A stretch of 11,552 nt of DNA from a virus (taxonomy: Duplodnaviria > Heunggongvirae > Uroviricota > Caudoviricetes): the IMG/VR virus record IMGVR_UViG_2529293041_000008; one strand, 5' to 3'. The notes under the pieces are model-generated. The model had not been told where the DNA came from and did no database searches. It saw only the letters and a list, made by a program, of their open reading frames with translations. Position numbers and translations under genes: made by a program. Below, in pieces: positions 1-11,084 of the stretch; within the stretch, counting starts at the first letter, position 1, and every line of letters begins with the position of its first letter.

Positions 1-2741
<2,741 letters not shown>

Positions 2742-2742
<1 letters not shown>

Positions 2743-3071
2743 TGGAGACGTTTCACTGGAAAGTGCGCCCGGATATGAATGTGGTATCAGAGCCGAAAGT
2801 GGTGACAGTGAAGCTGGGCGATGGTTATGAACAGCGTCGTGCGGCGGGACTGAATAACCAGTTGTCGACTTACAGCGTGACGATACGTGTTCGTAAATGT
2901 GAACACCCATCTTTAAAAGCCTTTCTGGAACGGCACGGTGGCGTCCGCGCATTTCAGTGGACGCCACCTTATGACTGGAAACCGATTAGGGTGGTTTGTC
3001 GTAAATGGTCGGCAAGCGTGGGGGCGCTGTGGGTAACCATAACGGCAGATTTTGAACAGGTCGTGGCATAG
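2742..3071 (+). CDS. M: Minor tail protein M (tail tip assembly)
   Basis: 109 aa, the same length as lambda M. Translation METFHWKVRPDM...GDGYEQR...HGGVRAFQWTPPYDW...FEQVVA resembles lambda M from memory. Start overlaps the H stop. Confidence 0.9.
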
Positions 3072-3080
3072 GAGGCTCTG

Positions 3081-3779
3081 ATGCAGGATATTCCACAGGA
3101 AACACATCATGAGACGACACGCCTCACTCAGTCAGCCCAGGTGGTGCTCTGGGAAATCGATCTGACAGAGGTCGGTGGTGAACGTTATTTTTTCTGTAAT
3201 GAGCAGAACGAAAAAGGTGAGCCGGTTACCTGGCAGGGGCGGCAGTATCAGGCATACCCCATTCAGGGGACAGGATTTGAACTGAACGGCAAGGGCAGTG
3301 CTGCCCGTCCGACACTGACGGTTTCTAACCTGCACGGCATGGTCACGGGGATGGCGGAAGACCTGCAGAGTCTGGTCGGCGGAACGGTGGTCAGGCGTAA
3401 GGTTTACGCCCGTTTTCTGGATGCGGTGAACTTCGTCAACGGAAACAGCGACGCCGATCCGGAGCAGGAGGTGATCAGCCGCTGGCGCATCGAGCAGTGC
3501 AGCGAACTGAGTGCGGTCAGTGCCTCCTTTGTGTTGTCCACACCGACGGAAACGGATGGTGCTGTTTTTCCGGGGCGTATCATGCTGGCCAACACCTGCA
3601 CCTGGACCTATCGCGGTGATGAGTGTGGTTATCACGGTCCGGCTGTCGCGGATGAATATGACCAGCCGACGTCCGATATCACGAAGGATAAATGCAGCAA
3701 ATGCCTGAGCGGCTGTAAGTTTCGCAATAACGTCGGCAACTTTGGCGGCTTCCTTTCCATTAACAAACTTTCGCAGTAA
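3081..3779 (+). CDS. L: Minor tail protein L (tail tip assembly, Fe-S cluster protein)
   Basis: 232 aa, the same length as lambda L. AGGAGG lies 8 nt upstream of the ATG. Translation MQDIPQE...VVLWEIDLTEVGGERYFFCNEQNEKGEPVTWQGRQYQ...CTWTYRGDECGY...KCSKCLSGCKF matches lambda L closely from memory, including the C-terminal Cys cluster. Confidence 0.9.
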   Translation: MQDIPQETHHETTRLTQSAQVVLWEIDLTEVGGERYFFCNEQNEKGEPVTWQGRQYQAYPIQGTGFELNGKGSAARPTLTVSNLHGMVTGMAEDLQSLVGGTVVRRKVYARFLDAVNFVNGNSDADPEQEVISRWRIEQCSELSAVSASFVLSTPTETDGAVFPGRIMLANTCTWTYRGDECGYHGPAVADEYDQPTSDITKDKCSKCLSGCKFRNNVGNFGGFLSINKLSQ

Positions 3780-3783
3780 TCCC

Positions 3784-4527
3784 ATGACACAGACAGAATC
3801 AGAGATTCTGGCGCACGCCCGGCGATGTGCGCCAGCGGAGTCGTGCGGCTTCGTGGTGAGAACGCCGGAAGGGGAAAGATATTTTCCCTGCGTGAATATC
3901 TCCGGTGAGCCGGAGGCGTATTTCCGGATGTCGCCGGAGGACTGGCTGCGGGCAGAGATGCAGGGTGAGATTGTGGCGCTGGTCCACAGCCACCCCGGTG
4001 GTCTGCCCTGGCTGAGTGAGGCTGACAGGCGGCTGCAGGTGCAGAGCGATTTGCCTTGGTGGCTGGTCTGCCGGGGTGAGATTCATAAATTCCGCTGTGT
4101 GCCGCATCTTACCGGGCGGCGCTTTGAGCACGGGGTGACGGACTGTTACACGCTGTTCCGGGATGCTTATCATCTGGCGGGGATTGAGATGCCGGACTTT
4201 CATCGTGAGGATGACTGGTGGTGTAACGGCCAGAATCTCTATCTGGATAATCTGGAGGCCACAGGGCTGTATCAGGTGCCGTTGTCAGCGGCGCAGCCGG
4301 GCGATGTGCTGCTGTGCTGTTTTGGTTCATCGGTGCCGAATCATGCCGCCATTTACTGCGGCGACGGTGAGCTGTTGCACCATATTCCTGAACAACTGAG
4401 CAAACGAGAGAGGTATACCGACAAATGGCAGCGACGCACACACTCCCTCTGGCGTCACCGGGCATGGCACGCATCTGCCTTTACGGGGATTTACAACGAT
4501 TTGGCCGCCGCATCGACCTTCGTGTAA
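3784..4527 (+). CDS. K: Tail tip assembly protein K (N-terminal JAB/MPN-like domain plus C-terminal NlpC/P60-like domain)
   Basis: ATG at 3784 sits 4 nt after the L stop; the ORF-track start at 3742 lies inside L and was not used. HSHPGGLPWLSEAD fits the JAMM-type H-x-H-x7-S-x2-D motif. Cys in DCYTLF and downstream His residues fit an NlpC/P60 fold. The 103-nt out-of-frame overlap with I matches lambda; the shorter 199-aa lambda K annotation would correspond to Met49 here. Confidence 0.85.
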   Translation: MTQTESEILAHARRCAPAESCGFVVRTPEGERYFPCVNISGEPEAYFRMSPEDWLRAEMQGEIVALVHSHPGGLPWLSEADRRLQVQSDLPWWLVCRGEIHKFRCVPHLTGRRFEHGVTDCYTLFRDAYHLAGIEMPDFHREDDWWCNGQNLYLDNLEATGLYQVPLSAAQPGDVLLCCFGSSVPNHAAIYCGDGELLHHIPEQLSKRERYTDKWQRRTHSLWRHRAWHASAFTGIYNDLAAASTFV

Positions 4528-5072
4528 AAACGGGGGCTGAAGCCATCCGGGCGTTGTCCACACAGCTCCCGGCGTTTCGTCAGAAACTGAATGACGGCTG
4601 GTATCAGGTGCGCATTGCCGGGCGTGATGCAGGTGAAACCGAATTATCTGCCCGTCTTAATGAGCCGCTGGCAAATGGTGCCGTGATCCACATCGTGCCG
4701 CATCTGGCGGGAGCTAAAAGTGGCGGTGTGTTTCAGGTGGTGCTGGGGGCGGCGCTGATTGCGGTGGCATGGTGGAACCCTGTGGGCTGGCTGGGTGCCG
4801 CGGCTGTATCGGGCATGTATGCGGCAGGGGCCAGTATGATCCTGGGTGGTGTGGCCCAGATGCTGGCACCGAAAGCCCGGACGCCCACAGCGACCAGCAC
4901 GGATAACGGTAAGCAGAACACCTATTTCTCATCACTGGATAACATGGTTGCCCAGGGCAATGTTCTGCCTGTTCTGTACGGTGAAATGCGCGTGGGGTCT
5001 CGTGTGGTTTCTCAGGAGATCAGCACGGCAGATGAAGGGGACGGTGGTCAGGTTGTGGTGATTGGCCGCTGA
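4425..5072 (+). CDS. I: Tail tip assembly protein I
   Basis: 215 aa. GAGAGG lies about 12 nt upstream. N-terminus MAATHTLPLASPGMARICLYGDLQRFGRRIDLRV and C-terminus ...NGKQNTYFSSLDNMVAQGNVLPVLYGEMRVGSRVVSQEISTADEGDGGQVVVIGR resemble lambda I from memory. The I-J gap is 60 nt, as in lambda. Confidence 0.85.
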   Translation: MAATHTLPLASPGMARICLYGDLQRFGRRIDLRVKTGAEAIRALSTQLPAFRQKLNDGWYQVRIAGRDAGETELSARLNEPLANGAVIHIVPHLAGAKSGGVFQVVLGAALIAVAWWNPVGWLGAAAVSGMYAAGASMILGGVAQMLAPKARTPTATSTDNGKQNTYFSSLDNMVAQGNVLPVLYGEMRVGSRVVSQEISTADEGDGGQVVVIGR

Positions 5073-5090
5073 TGCAAAATATTTCATGTG

Positions 5091-5116
5091 AAACCGCCTC
5101 CGGGCGGTTTTGTCGT
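5091..5116 (+). other. Intergenic stem-loop between I and J (8-bp stem AAACCGCC/GGCGGTTT, loop TCCG, followed by a T-rich tract)
   Basis: Inverted repeat 5091-5098 / 5103-5110 followed by TGTCGTTT. Looks like a weak intrinsic terminator or RNA stability element inside the late tail operon. Function not determinable from sequence. Confidence 0.35.
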
Positions 5117-5132
5117 TTATGGAGCATGACGA

Positions 5133-8100
5133 ATGGGCAAAGGAAGCAGTAAGGGGCATACCCCGCGCGAAGCGAAGGACAACCTGAAGTCCACGCAACT
5201 GCTGAGTGTGATTGATGCCATCAGCGAAGGGCCGATTGACGGTCCGGTGGATGGATTAAAAAGCGTGCTGCTGAACAGTACGCCGGTGCTGGACAGTGAG
5301 GGGAATACCAATATCTCCGGTGTCACGGTGGTGTTCCGGGCTGGTGAGCAGGAGCAGACTCCGCCGGAGGGATTTGAATCCTCCGGCTCCGAGACGGTGC
5401 TGGGTACGGAAGTGAAATACGACACGCCGATCACCCGGACCATCACGTCGGCAAACATTGACCGACTGCGTTTTACCTTCGGTGTGCAGGCACTGGTGGA
5501 AACCACCTCAAAGGGGGACAGGAATCCGTCGGAAGTCCGCCTGCTGGTTCAGATACAACGTAACGGTGGCTGGGTGACGGAAAAAGACATCACCATTAAA
5601 GGCAAAACCACCTCACAGTATCTGGCATCGGTGGTGGTGGGTAACCTGCCGCCGCGCCCGTTCAATATCCGGATGCGCAGGATGACGCCGGACAGCACCA
5701 CAGACCAGCTGCAGAACAAAACGCTCTGGTCGTCATACACCGAAATCATCGATGTGAAACAGTGCTACCCGAACACGGCACTGGTCGGCGTACAGGTGGA
5801 TTCGGAGCAGTTCGGCAGCCAGCAGGTGAGCCGTAATTATCATCTTCGCGGGCGCATTCTGCAGGTGCCGTCGAACTATAACCCGCAGACGCGACAATAC
5901 AGCGGTATCTGGGACGGAACGTTAAAACCGGCATACAGCAACAACATGGCCTGGTGTCTGTGGGATATGCTTACCCATCCGCGCTACGGCATGGGGAAAC
6001 GTCTTGGTGCGGCGGATGTGGATAAATGGGCGCTGTATGTCATCGGCCAGTACTGCGACCAGTCAGTGCCGGACGGCTTTGGCGGCACGGAGCCGCGCAT
6101 CACCTGTAATGCGTACCTGACCACACAGCGCAAGGCGTGGGATGTGCTCAGTGATTTCTGCTCGGCGATGCGCTGTATGCCGGTATGGAACGGGCAAACG
6201 CTGACGTTCGTGCAGGACCGACCGTCGGATAAGGTGTGGACCTATAACCGCAGTAATGTGGTGATGCCGGATGATGGCGCGCCGTTCCGCTACAGCTTCA
6301 GCGCCCTGAAGGACCGCCATAATGCCGTTGAGGTGAACTGGATTGACCCGAACAACGGCTGGGAGACGGCAACAGAGCTTGTGGAGGATACGCAGGCCAT
6401 TGCCCGTTACGGTCGTAACGTCACGAAGATGGATGCTTTTGGCTGTACCAGCCGGGGGCAGGCACACCGCGCCGGGCTGTGGCTGATTAAAACAGAACTG
6501 CTGGAAACGCAGACCGTGGACTTCAGCGTGGGCGCAGAAGGGCTTCGCCATGTGCCGGGCGATGTCATTGAAATCTGTGATGATGACTATGCCGGTATCA
6601 GCATCGGCGGGCGCGTGCTGGCGGTAAACAGCCAGACCCGGACGCTGACGCTCGACCGTGAAATCACGCTGCCATCCTCCGGTACCACGCTGATAAGCTA
6701 GGTTGACGGAAGTGGCAATCCGGTCAGCGTGGAGGTCCAGTCCGTCACCGACGGCGTGAAGGTAAAAGTGAGCCGTGTTCCTGACGGCGTTGCCGGATAC
6801 AGCGTGTGGGGGCTGAAGCTGCCGACGCTGCGCCAGCGCCTGTTCCGCTGCGTGAGTATCCGTGAGAACGACGACGGCACGTATGCCATCACCGCCGTGC
6901 AGCATGTACCGGAAAAAGAAGCCATCGTGGATAACGGGGCGCACTTTGACGGCGACCAGAGCGGCACGGTGAATGGTGTCACGCCGCCAGCGGTGCAGCA
7001 CCTGACTGCCGAAGTCACCGCAGACAGCGGGGAGTATCAGGTACTGGCCCGCTGGGATACGCCGAAGGTGGTGAAGGGCGTGAGTTTCATGCTTCGCCTG
7101 ACCGTGGCAGCGGATGACGGCAGTGAGCGGCTGGTCAGCACAGCCCGGACGGCGGAAACCACATACCGCTTCACACAACTGGCGCTGGGGAACTACAGGC
7201 TGACAGTCCGGGCAGTAAATGCGTGGGGGCAGCAGGGCGATCCGGCATCGGTATCGTTCCGGATTGCCGCACCGGCAGCGCCGTCGCGGATTGAGCTGAC
7301 GCCGGGTTATTTTCAGATCACCGCCACGCCGCATCTTGCGGTTTATGATCCGACGGTACAGTTTGAGTTCTGGTTTTCGGAAAAGCGGATTACCGATATC
7401 AGGCAGGTTGAAACCAGCGCGCGCTATCTTGGCACGGGGATGTACTGGATAGCCGCCAGTATCAATATCAAACCGGGCCATGATTATTACTTTTATATCC
7501 GCAGTGTGAACACCGTTGGCAAATCGGCATTCGTGGAGGCTGTCGGTCAGGCGAGCGATGATGCGGAAGGTTACCTGGATTTTTTCAAAGGCCAGATAAC
7601 CGAATCCCATCTCGGCAAGGAGCTGCTGGAAAAAGTCGAGCTGACGGAGGATAACGCCAGCAAACTGGAGGAGTTTTCGAAAGAGTGGCAGGACGCTAAC
7701 GATAAGTGGAATGCCATGTGGGGCGTCAAAATTGAGCAGACCAAAGACGGCAAACATTATGTCGCGGGTATTGGCCTCAGCATGGAGGACACGGAAGAAG
7801 GCAAGCTGAGCCAGTTTCTGGTTGCCGCTAACCGTATCGCGTTTATTGACCCGGCAAACGGGAATGAAACGCCGATGTTTGTGGCGCAGGGCAATCAGAT
7901 ATTTATGAACGACGTGTTCCTGAAGCGCCTGACGGCCCCGACCATTACCAGTGGTGGAAATCCACCGGCATTTTCCCTGACATCAGACGGAAAGCTGACC
8001 GCTAAAAATGCGGATATCAGTGGCAGAGTGAATGCGAACGCCGGGACGCTCAACAATGTCACGGTAAATGAAAACTGTACGATTAAGGGCATGCTGGAGG

Positions 8101-8546
8101 CGACTCAGGTCAGAGGTGACTTCGTTAAAGCTGTATCCAAATCATTTCCGAAACAGGCTGGTACGTGGGGTAACACGGAAACACCAAACGGGACGGTTAC
8201 AGTCACCATCAGCGATGATCATAACTTTGACCGTCAAATCATTATTCCGCCCATTATCTTTAACGGAATAGCGTATAGCTATCCGGGAAGTGGTAATAAC
8301 CCGGGAGGTACAAGATACACGGGTTATGGTTTTGAAGTTCGCAAAAACGGTGTATTAATCGCATCCAGAGAAACTAAAGGGGCCATTCCCGGTAGCTACA
8401 GTGCGGTTATTGATATGCCGAGTGGCAGGGGAAGCGTCACTCTGGAGTTTAAGGTTTTCCATAAAGGCAATCAGTGGGCAGGTAATATCACCGACTGTAC
8501 GGTGATTGTGACCAAAAAAGCCGCTTCCGGCATCAGTATTCGTTGA
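5133..8546 (+). pseudogene. J: Central tail fibre / host specificity protein J, full length but interrupted by one in-frame amber codon (TAG 6699-6701); ORF-track pieces 5133-6701 and 6729-8546 are the same frame
   Basis: The two pieces are in the same frame and together span about 1136 codons, close to lambda J (1132 aa). N-terminus MGKGSSKGHTPREAKDNLKSTQLLSVIDAISEGPIDG is lambda-J-like. The sequence right after the stop ([29 protein letters not shown]) continues the J protein with no start codon or RBS. The last ~150 aa differ from lambda J as I recall it. Confidence 0.85.
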
Positions 8547-8566
8547 AATTGTTATAACCCATATAA

Positions 8567-8591
8567 GGGCACCAGAAATGGTGCCTTTTTT
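8567..8591 (+). terminator. Rho-independent terminator after J
   Basis: Stem GGCACC (8568-8573) / GGTGCC (8580-8585), loop AGAAAT, followed by TTTTTT (8586-8591). Confidence 0.6.
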
Positions 8592-8615
8592 ATTGCAGAA
8601 AAGCGAGAGGTAATT

Positions 8616-9218
8616 ATGCGTAAAGTTTGTGCAGCAATTTTGTCCGCAGCCATCTGTCTGTCCGTATCCGGTGCGCCTGCATGGGCGTCTGAACATCAGT
8701 CCACACTGAGCGCGGGGTATCTTCATGCCCGGACGAACGCTCCCGGTAGCGATAATCTTAACGGGATTAACGTGAAATACCGTTATGAATTTACGGACAC
8801 GCTGGGGCTGGTGACGTCATTCAGCTATGCAGGAGACAAGAATCGCCAGCTTACCCGTTACAGCGATACCCGCTGGCATGAAGATTCCGTGCGTAACCGC
8901 TGGTTCAGCGTGATGGCGGGGCCGTCTGTGCGCGTGAATGAATGGTTCAGCGCGTATGCGATGGCGGGTGTGGCTTACAGCCGTGTGTCGACTTTCTCCG
9001 GGGATTATCTTCGCGTAACTGACAACAAGGGGAAAACGCACGATGTGCTGACCGGAAGTGATGACGGTCGCCACAGCGACACCTCTCTGGCGTGGGGAGC
9101 TGGCGTGCAGTTTAACCCGACCGAATCCGTGGCCATTGATATTGCTTATGAAGGCTCCGGCAGTGGCGACTGGCGCACTGACGGTTTCATCGTGGGTGTC
9201 GGTTATAATTCTGATTAG
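8616..9218 (+). CDS. lom: Lom-family outer-membrane beta-barrel protein (Ail/PagC/OmpX family), lysogenic-conversion moron; C-terminus apparently altered by a 1-nt deletion
   Basis: GAGAGG RBS about 7 nt upstream. Signal peptide [24 protein letters not shown] followed by SEH. Alternating beta-strand pattern with ...DGFIVGVGY near the end. Sits between J and the tail fibre as in lambda and has its own downstream terminator. Ends GYNSD, lacking the family-typical terminal Phe. Confidence 0.85.
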
Positions 9219-9241
9219 CCAGGTAACACAGTGTTATGACA

Positions 9242-9267
9242 GTCCGCCGGTTCAGGCGGGCTTTTTT
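9242..9267 (+). terminator. Rho-independent terminator after lom
   Basis: Stem GTCCGCC (9242-9248) / GGCGGGC (9255-9261) with one G-U pair, loop GGTTCA, followed by TTTTTT (9262-9267). Confidence 0.6.
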
Positions 9268-9278
9268 GTGAGGTGAAT

Positions 9279-10549
9279 ATGGCAGTAAAGATTTCAGGTG
9301 TACTGAAAGACGGCACAGGAAAACCGGTACAGAACTGCACAATCCAGCTGAAAGCAAAACGTAACAGTACCACTGTGGTGGTGAACGCGCTGGCCTCAGA
9401 AATCCGGATGAAGCCGGGCGTTACAGTATGGACGTTGAGTACGGTCAGTACAGCGTTATTCTGTTGGTGGAGGGATTCCCGCCGTCACATGCCGGGACCA
9501 TCACCGTGTATGAAGATTCTCAACCCGGTACGCTGAATGATTTTCTCGGTGCCATGACGGAGGATGATGCCCGTCCGGAGGCACTGCGACGTTTTGAACT
9601 GATGGTGGAAGAGGTGGCGCGTAACGCTGAGGAGGCGAAGAAGAATGCCGGAGAGGCAGAGACGTCAGCGAGGAATGCGGGTATATCAGCCGGCCAGGCG
9701 GAAAAGAGTGCAGTAAATGCTGAGACTTCTGCAGGGGATGCATCGGAGTCAGCCCGGCAGGCGACGGAAAGTGCAGCCTCAGCAAAGCAGTCAGAGGATG
9801 CGTCCTCGTCCTCGGCTTCTGCGGCCGCTCAAAAAGCCAGTGAGTCATCACAAAGTGCAGCAGAAGCTGAATTGTCAAGAAAGACGGCAGAAAGTGCAGC
9901 CGGTAATGCATCCAGGGATGCAACGACCGCAGCAGAAAAAGCCCGGGAGTCAGCAGAAAGCGCACAGTCAGCGGAACAAAGCAGGATAGCGGCGGAAGAC
10001 GCCGTAAACCGAATCCCCACCGTGGTGGGACCTCCCGGGCCAAAGGGGGAACAGGGGCCCGCGGGTCCTCAGGGGCCGAAGGGTGATAAGGGAGAGCGCG
10101 GTGACACCGGCCCTGTCGGGGCAACCGGCGAACGGGGACCGGCAGGTGATGCTGGTCCGGCAGGCCCGCAGGGGCCGAAAGGTGACAGGGGAGAGCGGGG
10201 AGAGACCGGTCTGACGGGAAATGCAGGTCCACAGGGTCCAAAGGGAGATACCGGTGCGGCAGGCCCACAGGGACCGAAAGGAGAAACAGGTGCGGCTGGC
10301 CCGGTGGGGGCAACCGGACCTCAGGGACCGAAGGGCGACCCGGGGGAGACACAAATCCGTTTTCGTCTGGGGCCGGCGAGCATTATTGAGACAAACAGCA
10401 ATGGCTGGTTCCCGGATACAGATGGCGCACTCATCACCGGACTGACCTTTCTTGACCCCAAAGATGCCACACAGGTTCAGGGGCTGTTTCAGCATTTGCA
10501 GGTCAGGTTTGGTGACGGGCCGTGGCAGGATGTTAAGGGGCGTGGATGA
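9279..10549 (+). pseudogene. stf: Side tail fibre protein (lambda Stf-like N-terminus, Ala/Ser/Glu-rich coiled region, collagen-like repeat, C-terminal globular domain) with a -1 frameshift near codon 40
   Basis: ATG at 9279 is preceded by TGAGGTG. N-terminus [36 protein letters not shown] matches lambda Stf from memory. The frame then drifts into nonsense and stops at 9536, while the neighbouring frame continues with the Stf-like ...[60 protein letters not shown]. The shift is at the A-run in TCAGAAATCC (9396-9405). Confidence 0.75.
10028..10342 (+). repeat. Collagen-like repeat: 35 uninterrupted Gly-X-Y triplets within the tail fibre gene
   Basis: Direct translation: [105 protein letters not shown]. 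Confidence 0.9.
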
Positions 10550-10604
10550 AGTGGGCAGTGATACAGGCAGAACAGGAGAATGACATGAATATACTAAAAA
10601 ACTT

Positions 10605-10853
10605 ATGCAGCGTCTGTGTGGTTGCGGAAAGCATGATGGCCGTGAACACGTGCAGTCGCTTACAGCACAACTGCGTCTGGGGCCGGCAGACATCCTGGAG
10701 TCCGATGAGAATGGTATTATTCCGGAGCAGGACAGGGTAATCACGCAGGTGGTGATACTGGATGCAGATAAAAAGCAGATACAGTGCGTGGTAAGACCGC
10801 TGCAAATCCTGCGTGCTGACGGGGTGTGGGAAAATATTGGCGGGATGAAGTAA
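10605..10853 (+). CDS. Short ORF (82 aa) paralogous to the C-terminal domain of the upstream tail fibre; possible fibre-tip or chaperone-like module, or a remnant of a second fibre gene
   Basis: ...AQLRLGPADILESDENGIIPEQDRVITQVVILDADKKQIQCVVRPLQILRADGVWENIGG aligns with the fibre C-terminus ...[62 protein letters not shown]. An identical 14-mer CGTCTGGGGCCGGC occurs at 10364-10377 and 10674-10687. No good RBS before the ATG at 10605, so start and frame are uncertain. Followed by a terminator-like hairpin. Confidence 0.45.
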   Translation: MQRLCGCGKHDGREHVQSLTAQLRLGPADILESDENGIIPEQDRVITQVVILDADKKQIQCVVRPLQILRADGVWENIGGMK

Positions 10854-10868
10854 CCCGACAGCTTCACA

Positions 10869-10897
10869 AAACCGGAGTCCGGCTCCGGTTTTTGTTG
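10869..10897 (+). terminator. Terminator-like hairpin after the short fibre-paralog ORF
   Basis: Stem ACCGGAG (10871-10877) / CTCCGGT (10883-10889), loop TCCGG, extendable by A-T pairs, followed by TTTTGTTGT. The T tract is interrupted, so strength is uncertain. Confidence 0.5.
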
Positions 10898-11084
10898 TCA
10901 TGTCATGGTGATGTTTGTTAATGAAGGCTTGAGGGAATATTTATCCGTATGAAGGAATATGGTAATGCCTGGATTAATATCATATGTGTCATCGGCTTCA
11001 TCGTGAATGAGATGATGGAGCTGCGTCAGCAGGTAATGGAGGGGCAGATTGGTGGATTTCTCCTGGGAGGGGCTGTCTCTTATA

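Follow-up and report, generated by a model that had tools for sequence, protein, structure and literature searches.

We analysed a stretch of 11,552 nucleotides (the window), in which the tail module of a lambda-like prophage begins with pieces of the tape-measure gene (H), runs through M, L, K, I, J and lom, and then reaches a side tail fibre gene. The gene order upstream of the fibre is that of phage 434 and cdtI, which places the fibre at its lambdoid tail-module location. The succession of J, lom (8616-9218, PF06316), fibre, a gene for a free-standing copy of the fibre's C-terminal type of domain (the PfC-only gene) and T3SS effector genes is common to phage 434, cdtI, DCE7 and DEC5E, and the closest complete genome is that of E. 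coli DCE7, at 98.3% over 89% of the window. The fibre region comprises the following features:

9241..9272, plus strand: terminator-like hairpin with a T-run, after lom and directly upstream of the fibre start (terminator scan)
9279..9400, plus strand: first part of the anchor domain PfN (PF08400), in the frame of ATG 9279 (profile positions 1-44, E 4e-18)
9399..9403, plus strand: frameshift site, at which one A is absent from an A-run (GAAAATCC to GAAATCC, by comparison with four relatives)
9401..9676, plus strand: second part of PfN, in the shifted frame (profile positions 51-133, E 1e-37)
9677..10027, plus strand: Ala/Ser/Glu segment of 117 aa (PCoil), recognised by composition and lag-7 periodicity
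10028..10351, plus strand: collagen domain of 36 uninterrupted Gly-X-Y triplets, 108 aa (regular-expression count; PF01391, E 7e-18)
10355..10540, plus strand: PfC, the C-terminal globular domain (PF06820, E 6e-35, profile positions 1-62 of 64)
10541..10583, plus strand: one-base insertion at ~10542 leading to a stop at 10547-10549, with the ancestral frame running to TGA 10581-10583 (alignments and repaired translation)
10585..10853, plus strand: free-standing PfC-only gene, 89 aa in relatives (PF06820, E 8e-36; phrog_576 'tail fiber protein')

The phage 434 record has annotations of both a terminator and a ribosome-binding site where 9241..9272 would lie. Just before it, the end of lom (9205-9218) has a one-base deletion that turns the GYKF* of relatives into GYNSD* here.

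From 5' to 3', the fibre gene is built of PF08400 (phage_tail_N), an Ala/Ser/Glu segment, PF01391 (Collagen) and PF06820 (Phage_fiber_C). The preliminary description had placed these four modules, in this order, in a single intact gene at 9279-10549. The modules and their order stand, on Pfam matches for the anchor, collagen and C-terminal parts and on composition for the Ala/Ser/Glu segment; the single gene does not, as the ORF list and a three-frame translation give two ORFs in different frames, 9273/9279-9536 and 9428-10549, separated by a frameshift that the preliminary description passed over unremarked. The second ORF as listed begins at ATG 9428; its first 83 residues match PF08400 positions 51-133, and its residues 310-371 (window 10355-10540) make up the PF06820 domain. 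The reading of the N-terminus as a lambda-Stf-like anchor is borne out by PF08400 and by the first 94 residues of the frame-repaired protein, which match the full chain of Ur-lambda Stf (PDB 9e7m/9mgh) with 5 substitutions (E 1e-53).

Between 9677 and 10027, Ala accounts for 29.9% of residues, Ser for 20.5%, Glu for 12.0% and large hydrophobic residues for 6.8%, and the autocorrelation of Ala over the 117 residues is 0.39 at lag 7 and 0.30 at lag 14. The collagen repeat that follows had been given as 35 triplets ending at 10342; it is indeed an uninterrupted Gly-X-Y run, of 36 triplets ending at 10351, and contains a tandem repeat of 36 nt (four Gly-X-Y units) in 2.2 copies at 10223-10302. Collagen and PF06820 make up the C-terminal half, in which Pfam detected neither Pf2 repeats (PF03406, unmatched throughout the fibre) nor a gp37-like distal receptor-binding part. 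The domain search thus supports the earlier view that the lambda Stf distal region is absent and that the C-terminus is a different module.

We aligned positions 9200-10900 with phage 434, phage cdtI and the E. coli DCE7 prophage, and positions 399-10920 with the O55:H7 DEC5E prophage. The window copy lacks the single continuous reading frame of a functional EPclA allele (the published type to which we assign it below): a one-base deletion at ~9400 falls inside the anchor domain, and a one-base insertion, an extra G, lies at ~10542. The gene end at 10549, as first described, is the stop that this insertion creates; in intact relatives the fibre runs 11 codons further, to the equivalent of window position 10583. 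Compared with the relatives, the window also lacks one copy of the 9-nt direct repeat CGGCAGGYC at ~10257, inside the 36-nt tandem repeat, a loss that keeps the frame and removes one triplet. Reversal of both single-base changes yields a protein of 434 aa with 97.7% identity to WP_072132910 of E. coli DCE7 and 96.6% to the side tail fibre of phage 434, and the missing triplet is the only gap between this repaired protein and its relatives. When an 81-nt stretch over the ~9400 site was compared with 5,426 complete E. coli genomes, and one record at 99% or more was left aside, the best full-length matches still differed from it (97.6%). The 373-aa second ORF had no exact match in the assembly collection.

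The prophage around this gene is a decayed, IS-flanked remnant. On the left, an IS21-family IstB fragment (39-332, PF01695) abuts the tape-measure gene (399-2742), and the window is homologous to the tail regions of related prophages only from 399 onward. Against the DEC5E prophage, seven single-base indels occur in 399-10920, at 935, 2037, 3778, 9209, 9400, 10542 and 10596, those at 3778 and 10542 lying outside homopolymers. The first two are in the tape-measure gene, which also has a 9-nt length difference at ~2374-2388. J is split by an in-frame TAG at 6699-6701 into ORFs of 5133-6701 and 6729-8546; since alignment of J to the DEC5E prophage revealed no indel, the TAG is a substitution. On the right, a pseudogene of an nleG-family (DUF1076) T3SS effector starts at ~10965 and ends at ~11072, with 98.9% identity to E. 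coli copies, and ISEc13 (IS4-like) adjoins it from ~11062. The effector slot of the relatives holds nleH/cif, nleB/nleC or nleG/nleD. Exact patterns from across the fibre frameshift site and from the nleG-family remnant found no match among species-representative genomes. Because it sits in such a remnant, the window copy of the fibre gene is probably a pseudogene.

We therefore read the locus, with a probability of roughly 85%, as a lambda-like prophage side tail fibre gene of the published EPclA type whose copy in the window is disabled by frameshifts; we met no evidence that contradicts the family assignment. The claim of inactivation depends on the accuracy of the sequence, because several of the seven indels lie in short homopolymer runs, where sequencing error would look alike. 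A less probable reading, which nevertheless has to be weighed, is that the real genome has an unbroken gene and a functional fibre, the indels at 9400, 10542 and 10596, like those elsewhere in the window, being errors of sequencing or assembly. Seven single-base indels in 10.5 kb, several of them in one-base runs (the A-runs at 9400 and 10596), would suit this reading, as would the observation that these three indels are each private to the window among the 5,426 complete E. coli genomes and that the coding sequence is otherwise well conserved, the repaired protein retaining the identity given above. It accounts poorly for damage of other kinds: the nonsense substitution in J is beyond homopolymer error, the indels at 3778 and 10542 lie outside one-base runs, the IS21-family fragment abuts the 5' end of the tail region at the point where prophage homology begins, and ISEc13 adjoins the truncated nleG-family remnant. 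So damaged a prophage is no longer under selection for upkeep of its fibre, and frame-loss alleles of EPclA are on record in finished genomes (Table 2 of PMC3368898). What speaks for real decay is thus the nonsense codon, together with the IS insertions and the non-homopolymer indels, and the window copy, as a frameshifted allele in a decayed prophage, is not to be annotated as an intact fibre.

The architecture of this disabled gene is already known: it is that of EPclA, described by Ghosh et al. (2012, PLoS One 7:e37872; PMC3368898), who recognised the same Pfam/InterPro families, PfN as PF08400/IPR013609 and PfC as PF06820/IPR009640. Their PCoil has 116 aa (Ala 32%, Ser 19%, Glu 13%), and the common form of EPclA has 437 aa with a collagen domain of 111 aa (PMC3368898). 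Recombinant EPclA was found by AUC, SEC-MALLS, CD and EM to be a trimer with a true collagen triple helix; the collagen CD signature has a Tm of 42 C, the helical PfN-PCoil part melts at ~50-52 C, PCoil and PfC are modules for trimerisation, the latter also renucleating the collagen helix, and the particle is a hinged dumbbell of ~50-62 nm (PMC3368898). From the 97.7% identity between the repaired protein and the intact EPclA-type fibre of DCE7, we infer that the window protein would likewise form a trimer with a collagen triple helix. EPclA genes such as ECs2717 of O157:H7 Sakai Sp14 and Z0982 of EDL933 have the same domain order, a PCoil of 116-117 aa, the same tail-module position and a composition like that of the window copy (Ala ~30%, Ser ~20%, Glu ~12%). 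The window has 36 triplets (108 aa) against the 37 (111 aa) that are commonest in EPclA and, as it carries two frameshifts, groups with the defective EPclA* alleles.

The type is also very common. Of 5426 complete E. coli genomes, 4805 contain sequence from the fibre region and 693 match at least 80% of the 1.7-kb query; one genome has matches in up to 18 places. Matches to the region occur in 383 phage records, including 434, cdtI, VT1-Sakai, 2851, 2B8 and many Stx-converting phages. The preliminary description had held the combination of modules worth recording, a judgement that we do not share since the EPclA architecture is both published and widespread. As a discovery the locus has little weight, EPclA having been characterised biophysically in 2012 and Pfam models existing for every globular part; rather, this type of fibre gene ranks with the most frequent prophage genes in pathogenic E. 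coli. What PfC binds and what the PfC-only gene does both matter for the spread of lambdoid phages that carry effectors or Shiga toxin.

The proposal that the fibre contains swapped-in parts was upheld, and the question put with it, whether repeat length varies among relatives, is answered in the affirmative. Proteins with the same PfN-PCoil part, with or without collagen, end in Peptidase_S74 (PF13884) in place of PfC (P0070-P0112, from Shigella boydii, S. dysenteriae, S. flexneri, S. sonnei and some E. coli), which is direct evidence that the C-terminal module is exchanged. Among 120 homologues the number of Gly-X-Y triplets ranges from 5 to 38, with 37 typical of the relatives; collagen domains of 63-144 aa had already been tabulated for EPclA (PMC3368898).

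Comparison with individual phages separates what is shared from what is particular to the window. The side fibres of phage 434 (UMO75288.1), cdtI (orf20), VT1-Sakai (H0004) and 2B8 (lateral fibre) show ~95-97% DNA identity over the fibre, the PfC-only gene and lom; these copies are intact, encode 437 aa and belong to viable phages, whereas that of the window carries frameshifts and has one triplet fewer. Ur-lambda Stf and the window fibre both continue from the N-terminal collar domain into a coiled-coil rod. Further on they differ: lambda Stf has a long coiled coil, a hinge, a T4 gp37-like distal part and an OmpC-binding tip, in contrast to the collagen helix and 62-aa PfC of the window. Lambda Stf has a Tfa chaperone. 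Tfa has no counterpart in the window, where the gene downstream of the fibre matches only PF06820 and phrog_576 and not a Tfa-type assembly chaperone. The EPclB fibres of short-tailed Stx phages (L0121 of 933W, ORF67/ECs1228 of Sp5 and gp61 of phi24B) share the PCoil, collagen and PfC modules, and that of Sp5 likewise precedes an 89-aa PfC-only gene (ORF68). Unlike the window fibre, EPclB has two collagen domains split by a Pf2 repeat and sits on a podovirus tail.

In an intact phage of this type, three chains would make up one fibre. By analogy with Ur-lambda, the N-terminal domains would become part of a collar of 12 members where the tail tube meets the tail tip, giving four fibres per virion: cryo-EM of Ur-lambda showed twelve StfN domains forming a collar at the gpV/gpM junction, with flexible linkers to four trimeric fibres (PMC12617516). 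We propose this attachment because so few of the 94 N-terminal residues differ from Ur-lambda Stf. The Ala/Ser/Glu segment would then form a trimeric alpha-helical rod, followed by a hinge and a collagen rod of ~31 nm (108 residues at the canonical rise of ~0.29 nm per residue). A trimer of PfC would close the fibre, set the register of the collagen helix and serve as the presumed host-binding tip. Slippage between short direct repeats could add or remove Gly-X-Y units and so change the length of the fibre, and the 9-nt unit lost at a direct repeat inside the 36-nt tandem repeat fits slippage as a source of length variation. The window copy itself would be unable to make a fibre, the deletion at ~9400 breaking the anchor and the insertion at ~10542 truncating the tail.

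That the C-terminal module sets receptor specificity, as the preliminary description had it, is a presumption; what has been demonstrated for PfC is trimerisation. Several reports on related phages touch on it. The lateral fibres of lambda_2B8, which has 96% DNA identity to the fibre region, are reported not to recognise BamA; EPclB was formerly credited with BamA binding, which is now doubted, and the tip of phi24B gp61 could be neither resolved nor modelled. Phage phi330, whose DNA is 95% identical in the fibre region, requires OmpC, a contact that its authors model on the phage's lambda-J-like central tail fibre.

Another reading, which we consider very unlikely, is that the protein is a bacterial collagen-like surface adhesin or virulence factor that serves the host cell, and not a phage structural protein. 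The Gly-X-Y region has sub-threshold NCBIfam similarity to the streptococcal Scl and Legionella Lcl adhesins, T3SS effector genes adjoin the locus in relatives, and Ghosh et al. left a bacterial role open (PMC3368898). The NCBIfam scores are far under the cut-off, however (77 vs 325 bits), and concern the collagen repeat only; outside it, neither Pfam nor NCBIfam gave a match to a cell-surface adhesin. At its N-terminus the protein has the virion collar domain whose structure was solved in Ur-lambda Stf (PMC12617516), the gene follows J and lom in the tail module of the free phages 434, cdtI and 2B8, and an antibody to the related EPclB fibre labels the tail ends of Sp5 (PMC5155283). It is scarcely credible that programmed or phase-variable frameshifting in the A-run explains the break at ~9400 and turns the side fibre on and off: although the site is a short A-run and laboratory lambda lacks side fibres owing to an stf frameshift (PMC12617516), the run has only 3-4 A's, the shorter form occurs in none of the relatives, so that populations show no switching, the gene carries another, unrelated frameshift at 10542 that is not in a homopolymer, and programmed frameshift signals were sought at the junction of the Sp5 fibre gene and PfC-only gene and none were found (PMC5155283).

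The disabled side tail fibre gene is followed by the PfC-only gene, which the preliminary description had overlooked and whose protein has 39% identity to the fibre's own PfC. One A is missing from its A-run at 10596-10601, and the ORF 10605-10853 still holds the whole domain. The gene is widespread, occurring in E. coli, E. albertii and Citrobacter rodentium. It fits the description of Sp5 ORF68, an 89-aa protein with a PfC domain only, encoded beside the fibre gene, which is non-essential and has been suggested to serve as a store of sequence for varying the fibre (PMC5155283). In the phage 434 record it is labelled a tail fibre assembly chaperone without a supporting note, unlike the neighbouring genes. 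It seems to us doubtful, though worth stating, that the PfC-only protein is a working partner of the fibre, either templating or capping the PfC knob as a chaperone or tip subunit, or swapping in and so altering the binding surface. Two homologues of 494 aa (P0008 and P0009) had been considered as natural fusions of the fibre with the PfC-only protein; we rejected them as frameshift products, because inspection of P0008 revealed out-of-frame read-through of the fibre's PfC region.

PfC itself belongs to a narrow family, in that its profile found only 87 clusters, mostly fragments, among 1.84 billion representative proteins; the identifiable sources of its homologues are Escherichia, Shigella and Citrobacter. 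A PDB sequence search matched only collagens and the Ur-lambda StfN chain, with no solved PfC among the matches. An AlphaFold2 model of the PfC monomer, made from a 25-row alignment, reached a pLDDT of 71.7 and a pTM of 0.48, a mediocre result to be expected of an obligate trimer with a shallow alignment, and a Foldseek search of the PDB with this model matched no solved fold (best E 1.5). The PfC profile also matches nine repeats in a protein of 993 aa (P0261) that is built of CarboxypepD_reg-like domains (PF13620), a family that PfN matches weakly as well. PfC may possibly be a remote relative of the PF13620 beta-sandwich fold, or the two may share a short motif.

Two antisense ORFs of 283 and 299 aa (minus strand, 9501-10352 and 9968-10867) extend across the Ala/Ser and collagen regions and most likely arise merely from codon content that is repetitive, rich in G+C and poor in stops. 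In phage cdtI, a hypothetical protein (orf22) is annotated on the minus strand of this region.
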